Shown: in pieces, positions 61,393-63,299 of the stretch
Numbering within the stretch: the stretch's first letter is position 1
Layout of the letters: every line of letters begins with the position of its first letter
From: Escherichia coli
GTDB taxonomy: Bacteria > Pseudomonadota > Gammaproteobacteria > Enterobacterales > Enterobacteriaceae
Direction: 5' to 3' (one strand)
Assembly (NCBI RefSeq): GCF_003790525.1
Contig: NZ_CP033635.1
Length of the DNA: 64,000 nt
The notes under the pieces: generated by a model
The model's input: only the letters and a program-made list of their open reading frames with translations
What the model was told of the DNA's origin: nothing
Database searches by the model: none
Program-made: the position numbers and the translations under genes

Positions 61393-61656
61393 TCAGGCGC
61401 GGATTTGTTGTGATGTGGTTGTGCTCTGGCAGATGGCAACGTGTGCGACGTCCACCAGTTTATTTAACTGACTAAACAGTAAGTCGACCGACCGTGGGCT
61501 GGCAACGGTCAATTCGATATTTATATTTTGTGCATCGCTGGCGGCGGCCATATTCATTGAGCAGACGTGGAAACCACGATGACGCACCACGCGTAAAACA
61601 CGTTCTAAGGTTTCCGGATTGAAGCGAGCCGATACATTGACCTGATGTTGCATCAT
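61393..61656 (-). CDS. ilvM: Acetolactate synthase II small subunit
   Basis: 87-aa ORF; start overlaps the ilvG stop (ATGA). Confidence 0.92.
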
Positions 61657-63299
61657 GATAATTTCTCCAACATTTCTGAATTACTGGCACCTGGCGGCAC
61701 CAGCGGCCAGACGTTCTCAAGTTCGTCGATTGAGACATGAAGCAGGTATGGCCCATCACTGTTCAGCATGGTGTCGAGTGCCGCTTCAACCTGGTCTTTA
61801 CGGGTGATGTGTTGGCCAGGGATGCCGAAGGCGCTGGCTAACATGAGGAAATCGGGATTATCGGTAAGGGTGGTTTCGCTATATCGTTCCTGGAAAAACA
61901 GTTGCTGCCATTGTCGAACCATCCCTAACCGTTGGTTATCGAGTAAGACGATTTTCAACGGTAACTGCTTGCGTTTTACGGTGCCCAGCTCTTGCACATT
62001 CATCATGAAAGAGCCGTCACCGGAGATACAGACGACGGTATCGTTCGGTCGCGCGACTTGTGCGCCAACCGCCGCCGGTAAACCAAAACCCATGGTGCCT
62101 AAGCCGCTGGAGGTGATGAAATTTTCCGGGCGAGTGTGGACGATGTGCTGGGCAGACCACATCTGGTGCTGCCCCACATCTGTGGTCACGATGCAATCCG
62201 CAGGTTTACGATCCGACAGTTGTTTTAATAACAACGGCGCGTAGATAGCGTCACCAGGATGGTCGTAACGCCAGGCATGTTCATCACGCAGTTGTGCGCA
62301 GTGTTGCTGCCAGTCATCGATATTTAACGGCTGCTGTAATGCTGGTAACAGAGCATTTAAATCACCCTGTAATGCCGCATGTGCCTGACGCAGCTTGTTC
62401 ATTTCTGCCGGATCGATATCCATATGGATAACGCTGGCGTGTGGTGCGAAGGTGTTCAGTTTGCCGGTCACCCGGTCATCAAAACGTGCGCCCACGGCTA
62501 TCAGTAGATCGCACTCCTGAACCGCGAAGTTCGCCGCTTTGGTGCCGTGCATTCCCAGCATGCCCAGATAGTACGGATAATCTGCTTCAACTGCGCCCAG
62601 CCCTTTCAGCGTGCAGGTGGCAGGCATTTTTGTGGTAGCGAGAAATTCACGCAAAGCCGGAACTGCCTGCGCCATGCCAACGCCACCGCCAACGTACAGC
62701 ATCGGTTTTTGCGCTTTTGCCAGCATCTGGCGCGCTTGCTCGACTTCGGCATGGGGGAAAGTCACTTCGTTTTCAACGGTGGTGAACCACGGTTCCAGAT
62801 CGCCGCTGGCTAACTGGATATCTTTTGGAATATCGACCAAAACCGGACCAGGACGACCAGAGCTGGCGACGTCAAACGCTTCGGCCATGATACGCGGTAA
62901 CTCTTCCAGTGATTGCACCAGGAAACTGTGCTTGGTGCAGGCTAACGACAACCCCAGAATATCCACCTCCTGAAATGCGTCAGTGCCGATAAACGGTGCG
63001 GATACCTGACCGGTGATAGCAACAACGGGGATGGAATCTAACAGTGCGTCCGCAAGCCCGGTTATCAGGTTGGTTGCGCCCGGACCAGACGTGGCGATAC
63101 ATACGCCAGTTTTGCCAGTAGCACGGGCATAACCGATAGCCGCCATTGCCGCACCCTGTTCATGTCGGCACAGCAAGTGCTCCATGCCGCCGTCATACAA
63201 TGCATCGTAAACCGGCATAATTGCGCCACCCGGATAACCGAAAACGGTATTCACACCCTGTGCCCGCAACGCATGTACCACCCACTGTGCGCCATTCAT
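61653..63299 (-). CDS. ilvG: Acetolactate synthase II large subunit (uninterrupted reading frame)
   Basis: 548-aa [28 protein letters not shown] with ThDP-binding GDGSFMMN; no internal frameshift or stop. Confidence 0.93.

Follow-up and report, generated by a model that had tools for sequence, protein, structure and literature searches.

The ilvG gene of the window (the whole stretch of 64,000 nucleotides of Escherichia coli DNA analysed here) is in all probability an ordinary, ancestral allele of natural E. coli, belonging to a phylogroup F / ST354-like lineage and, as judged from its sequence, functional. That K-12 carries a frameshift in ilvG is textbook knowledge dating from 1981, and in this sense the finding is already known, being the same frameshift seen from the other side. 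The intact gene, together with its 4% divergence from K-12, serves as a marker of provenance and annotation, pointing to a natural lineage and not to K-12, and it predicts valine-resistant growth with normal, non-polar expression of ilvMEDA.

Reading frame and identity of ilvG

The gene, coding for the catalytic (large) subunit of acetolactate (acetohydroxyacid) synthase II (AHAS II), occupies positions 61653..63299 of the minus strand as a single open reading frame with an ATG start, 548 codons followed by TGA, and zero in-frame stops in the list of open reading frames. One uninterrupted 548-codon frame had been claimed in the sequence-only reading, and both its coordinates and its length proved to be exact in that list and in the alignment described below. 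The chance of 548 sense codons staying open is, by our own estimate, ~(61/64)^548, or about 1e-11. The protein matches the NCBIfam equivalog NF006524 (acetolactate synthase 2 catalytic subunit) with 1071.4 bits against a curated cut-off of 738, residues 1-547 being aligned to positions 1-547 of the 548 in the profile, and is thus a member of this family by score as well as by full-length coverage. Over all 1647 nt the gene shows 100% nucleotide identity to the annotated ilvG of strain 2016C-3878, which is annotated with the same protein as that of SMS-3-5 (WP_001012577.1), and about 80 genomes carry an ilvG with at least 99% identity to that of the window.

Two open reading frames lie antisense to ilvG, at 61768-62244 (plus strand, 158 aa) and 62611-62973 (plus strand, 120 aa). 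The codon structure of ilvG on the sense strand most likely accounts for both.

The K-12 lesion and its absence from the window

The MG1655 ilvG pseudogene (b4488, 1645 nt) was used as the reference in a global alignment (MAFFT) with the 1647 nt of the window gene. The two sequences are 95.6% identical, with 71 substitutions between them. The only indel is a gap of 2 nt on the K-12 side, at gene positions 977-978 (62323-62322 in the window), where the window has 'AT'. This dinucleotide (62322..62323, minus strand) is the second unit of TTAAATATC, has no counterpart in K-12, and keeps the frame open. Consequently, K-12 reads CCG TTA AAT CAA TGA (P L N Q stop, the stop being codon 328), whereas the window reads CCG TTA AAT ATC GAT GAC TGG (PLNIDDWQQ...) and continues open to codon 548. 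The site has the sequence TTAAATATC in the window and in six natural alleles, versus TTAAATC in K-12. In K-12, an ATAT repeat at codons 326-327 has been shortened by one AT unit, and the K-12 type of frameshifted pseudogene, with the 2-nt deletion and TGA at codon 328, is not what the window carries. The absence of this frameshift from the window, also put forward in the sequence-only reading, is borne out by the MG1655 alignment, in which the 2-nt gap is found in K-12 only. In an O16:H48 genome of the K-12 type, ilvG is annotated as 'frameshifted'.

The K-12 frameshift is described as the cause of valine sensitivity, and the gene as intact in the B, W, and Crooks strains (PMC3446290, PMC3032704, PMC6483228). 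Changes of -1 nt at the premature TGA of K-12 (982delT, 983delG) restore the frame and growth on valine (PMC8605374), and a two-base insertion at position 981 also restores the frame (bioRxiv 10.1101/2025.08.26.672309). A single 2-nt deletion in K-12 agrees with such frame restoration by either -1 or +2 nt (PMC8605374; bioRxiv 10.1101/2025.08.26.672309). The genome paper of E. coli W (PMC3032704) calls the K-12 lesion 'two separate base pair insertions', whereas the seven intact alleles compared here show a single 2-nt deletion.

Distribution of the intact state

A search of 5,426 complete E. coli genomes was made with a 60-nt probe that has the K-12 junction at its centre. Matches with at least 99% identity were obtained in 340 genomes, and all 60 of the carriers listed are K-12 laboratory derivatives or laboratory-evolved lines, including MG1655, C600, J53, DH5alpha, DH1, RR1, HMS174, NEB 5-alpha, and ER strains. 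The other 4,468 matching genomes fall below 99%, and the matches listed for them span 58-62 nt (62 nt if full-length), which shows the two additional nucleotides. A further 618 genomes gave no seeded match to the probe and were not scored; the lineage of the window is probably among them, because of additional substitutions near the site. Six natural alleles picked across the identity range (E371, AHB19, 98200, NMBU_W05E18, O157:H7 F6321, and CI5), which together with the window and K-12 make up our sample of eight, are all 1647 nt long and intact.

An open frame might also arise from a sequencing or assembly artefact, namely a spurious 2-nt insertion in a gene that is in fact frameshifted. 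Short repeats do attract indel errors, and nothing more specific speaks for this explanation; many complete genomes, assembled independently of one another, contain the same sequence with 100% identity, and the AT is present in every natural allele examined, so that an artefact is extremely improbable. The intact ilvG is the norm in E. coli, by the junction test in at least 4,468 of the 5,426 complete genomes.

Origin of the window

At least 18 natural isolates, whose sources are humans, chickens, dogs, a pangolin, and river water, share positions 39001-64000 of the window (25 kb) with 100.0% identity. The match of the same segment to SMS-3-5 has a bit score of 46161, versus 46167 for a perfect match, which corresponds to about one mismatch. 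SMS-3-5 is an O19:H34 strain of phylogroup F and ST354 (PMC11537424). By sequence, the window is assigned to E. coli sensu stricto, in an SMS-3-5-like lineage, and Shigella or another species need not be invoked.

The sequence-only reading had derived a non-K-12 background from the open frame, and this step of its logic is weak. An open ilvG frame alone is no proof of non-K-12 origin, because K-12 strains that have reverted to valine resistance, or were engineered to be ilvG+, carry one as well (PMC8605374; bioRxiv 10.1101/2025.08.26.672309). The existence of such strains is what would favor the view that the window comes from a K-12 derivative with a restored frame (an ilvO/ilvG+ revertant or an engineered strain). 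In a revertant, however, everything apart from the lesion would match K-12 almost completely, and the alignment already refutes this: there are 71 substitutions relative to MG1655 in ilvG alone, and ilvD, ilvA, ilvY, and ilvC are 4-7% diverged from K-12. The site itself has the natural sequence TTAAATATC and not the -1 or +AA changes of the revertant type, and the 25 kb of complete identity is to natural isolates of the phylogroup F type. The probability of a restored K-12 gene is therefore vanishingly small. The conclusion of the sequence-only reading stands on these other grounds (the further ilvG differences, the natural 'AT', and the identity to natural isolates), and with 100% identity to natural isolates the window is neither K-12 nor a valine-resistant revertant of it.

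Divergence from K-12 and mosaic structure

The nucleotide divergence of ilvG from K-12 is 4.3%, with the differences within the gene concentrated at 300-500 nt and sparser toward the 3' end. Identities to K-12 are 95.6% for ilvD, 94.8% for ilvA, 92.8% for ilvY, 95.9% for ilvC, and 95.8% for ppiC, while most genes from rhlB to thrP are 97-99% identical. Among the eight strains, the natural ilvG alleles differ pairwise by 21-84 nt (up to 5.1%). The block ilvG-ilvD-ilvA-ilvY-ilvC (~54.1-63.2 kb) is 4-7% diverged, and is both interrupted and flanked by segments of 98-100% identity (ilvL/ilvX, ilvM, ilvE, and rhlB-rho). On the sequence comparison, ilvG is best read as a polymorphic core locus of E. 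coli whose divergence reflects the recombinational mosaic usual for such loci.

A foreign allele, or another species, was considered as the source of the 4.3% divergence and rejected, since the neighboring ilv genes are equally or more diverged; the range among natural alleles (up to 5.1%) and the 100% identity of the window to E. coli isolates also stand against a foreign origin. There is a small chance, which we mention as a speculation, that the block represents an old mosaic of deeply diverged and maintained ilv haplotypes, and that the phylogroup-F IlvG (with M39, A308, and S382) differs kinetically.

Mosaic divergence from K-12 is seen in the window at 54143-63299 and at 26134-31042, with aslB, aslA, and hemY diverged by 5-6%. 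The diverged genes of the ilv region (ilvG, ilvD, ilvA, ilvY, ilvC, and ppiC, 4-7%) are embedded among genes of 97-100% identity (ilvL, ilvX, ilvM, trxA, rho, and rffG), and the pattern is consistent with recombination tracts.

Several other differences from K-12 were noted in the window. The yifN homologue (53541-53990, plus strand) has an open frame of 149 aa and is annotated in SMS-3-5 as a toxin of the PemK/MazF family, whereas the frame of K-12 yifN (b3777) shifts after residue ~70; it is a second K-12 pseudogene that is intact in the window. K-12 has an extra palindromic REP-like element of about 54 nt (GCCTGATAGCGCTTCGCTTATCAGGCCTAC...) between ilvA and ilvY, which the window lacks at ~56982-56985, and another of about 41 nt (CCCTCTCCCACAGGGAGAGGG...) between ilvC and ppiC, lacking at ~54425-54469. 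In the lineage of the window, there is a 4-nt overlap between ilvA and ilvY, which are convergent, and ilvY measures 891 nt instead of 894 nt. The alignment of hemX (24938-26131) with K-12 contains 12 nt of gaps, a total that is a multiple of three, which could be an in-frame length polymorphism.

Operon context, coupling, and attenuation

The gene order ilvL-ilvX-ilvG-ilvM-ilvE-ilvD-ilvA is canonical and is annotated identically in the matching genomes, so that ilvG is found in its full expected setting of ilvL, ilvX, a coupled ilvM, and ilvEDA. The ilvG stop and the ilvM start overlap at 61653..61656 (minus strand), where the plus strand reads TCAT, i.e. ATGA on the coding strand, with the TGA of ilvG at 61655-61653 and the ATG of ilvM at 61656-61654. 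The coding-strand sequence of the junction is GAAATTATCATGATGCAACAT. This motif, a signature of translational coupling, had been reported in the sequence-only reading and was confirmed by direct reading of the letters; the annotations of K-12, 2016C-3878, and SMS-3-5 show the identical overlap of 4 nt.

The ilvM gene (61393..61656, minus strand) codes for the small (regulatory) subunit of AHAS II, a protein of 87 aa with the N-terminus MMQHQVNV, and is assigned by the equivalog NF008362 (133.9 bits, cut-off 68). It differs from K-12 by 1 nt (99.6% identity), and IlvM WP_000983255.1 is common to a K-12 derivative and to the strains that match the window at this place (2016C-3878, and near-exactly SMS-3-5). 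The next gene of the operon, ilvE (60444..61373, minus strand), codes for the branched-chain amino-acid transaminase (TIGR01122, 489.8 bits, cut-off 245.55) and is 98.2% identical to its K-12 counterpart at the nucleotide level.

Upstream of ilvG, the translated small frame of ilvX (63302..63352, minus strand, 16 codons) stops 2 nt before the ilvG ATG; it is 100% identical to K-12 ilvX (b4669), and the peptide IlvX is annotated in the matching genomes. The leader peptide gene ilvL (63439..63537, minus strand) encodes 32 aa (MTALLRVISLVVISVVVIIIPPCGAALGRGKA), is rich in Ile, Val, and Leu codons, scores 81.9 bits with NF007744 (cut-off 59), and is also 100% identical to K-12. The ilv leader and 5' UTR region (63319..63608, minus strand) matches the Rfam family RF02744 (Rev39_5p_UTR) over model positions 1-300 of 300, with 159.6 bits (gathering score 88, E = 1.3e-49). 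Folding of the RNA from 63370-63545 (minus strand) gives -63.8 kcal/mol with z = -4.05, and ends in a GC hairpin followed by U8. The attenuator terminator, with the hairpin CCCCCGCACCGAAAGGUCCGGGGG preceding U8, is located at 63383..63414 (minus strand), inside the RF02744 match.

A consensus terminator scan of the minus strand did not flag the ilv attenuator, probably owing to an internal mismatch in the stem, and the attenuator was recovered by RNA folding and Rfam. The promoter consensus scan gave 4 sites, vs 2.9 +/- 1.6 in shuffled sequence, and since the sites are no more numerous than in shuffled sequence no promoter was annotated.

Predicted function of the allele

When compared with the frame-restored K-12 ilvG, the window gene differs synonymously at 59 codons and non-synonymously at 11 (dS 0.173, dN 0.0088, dN/dS 0.051). 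A dN/dS of about 0.05 reads as the signature of purifying selection on ilvG. The dN/dS is 0.107 downstream of the frameshift vs 0.032 upstream, on counts too small to claim relaxed selection.

The protein contains E47, F109, Q110, M250, R276, V375, D428, N455, M460, and W464. E47 is the catalytic glutamate and W464 the substrate-specificity tryptophan. In the AHAS II mutagenesis literature, F109, Q110, M250, R276, V375, M460, and W464 are all of importance for catalysis or specificity. The GDG...N Mg2+/ThDP motif is present at 427-455, with D428 and N455. The three hallmarks of membership, i.e. the catalytic Glu, the GDG-X(n)-N motif, and the specificity Trp464, are thus all in place.

Most of the 11 amino-acid differences from K-12 are polymorphisms shared with other alleles. 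In the sample of eight, A308 and S382 are found in the window allele alone, and M39 in the window and E371; these three may affect activity, although none lies at a residue known to be catalytic. At two positions the replacements belong to the other side of the comparison: K-12 has C146 and H494, vs S146 and P494 in the window (62862-62864 and 61818-61820, respectively) and in the six natural alleles. Among the eight alleles, C146 and H494 are K-12-private replacements, residing in a pseudogene.

In the proposed course of expression, transcription of ilvL-X-G-M-E-D-A, ilvG included, would start at the ilv promoter and pass the ilvL leader and the attenuator. IlvG would be made as one ThDP/FAD/Mg2+-dependent catalytic subunit of 548 aa, with IlvM being produced by translational coupling at the ATGA overlap. 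The two subunits are expected to form AHAS II, the isozyme without valine feedback inhibition. AHAS I and III are inhibited by valine through their ACT-domain small subunits, while AHAS II with IlvM is not (PMC8605374). Since AHAS II is not inhibited by valine, the strain should grow on minimal medium supplemented with valine. For the polarity of the K-12 ilvG frameshift on ilvMEDA, PMC8605374 refers to Parekh and Hatfield 1997; in the window, where the premature stop is absent, no translational polarity on ilvMEDA would be expected. For the window strain, three predictions are well supported: a functional, valine-insensitive AHAS II, growth in the presence of valine, and expression of ilvMEDA free of frameshift polarity.

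The frame could be open and the enzyme nevertheless inactive or unexpressed, through a missense or regulatory defect, leaving the strain effectively AHAS II-negative. A308 and S382 are private among the eight alleles, and the activity is deduced from sequence, which leaves some room for this view. It is nonetheless very unlikely, given the dN/dS of 0.05, the conservation of all catalytic and cofactor residues checked, and the retention of the identical allele in about 80 genomes (at least 99% identity). The expression side likewise argues against a defect, with the leader peptide, ilvX, and the attenuator 100% identical to the functional regulatory region of K-12, and with IlvM being the same protein as in K-12. 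A working AHAS II is accordingly what the sequence of this locus would predict.

Comparison with known systems

In the structure search no solved E. coli AHAS II was found, and the chain named 'acetolactate synthase II' (5ahk) is distant (E = 1.8e-84). Solved structures of AHAS catalytic subunits can be aligned with IlvG over its whole length (E = 2e-161 to 1e-144), E. coli IlvB (6lpi) being matched with E = 2e-161. IlvB of AHAS I (6lpi) and the plant and yeast AHAS share with IlvG the same ThDP-dependent AHAS fold family, with the conserved catalytic Glu and GDG...N; IlvB, however, belongs to AHAS I, a different isozyme from AHAS II. The K-12 ilvG (b4488) is orthologous and is likewise flanked by ilvL, ilvX, ilvM, and ilvE, but it lacks the AT at 977-978 and ends at codon 328. 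The ilvG of 2016C-3878 and SMS-3-5 is the same allele as that of the window, in the same operon context and with the same ATGA coupling, and shows no difference from it.
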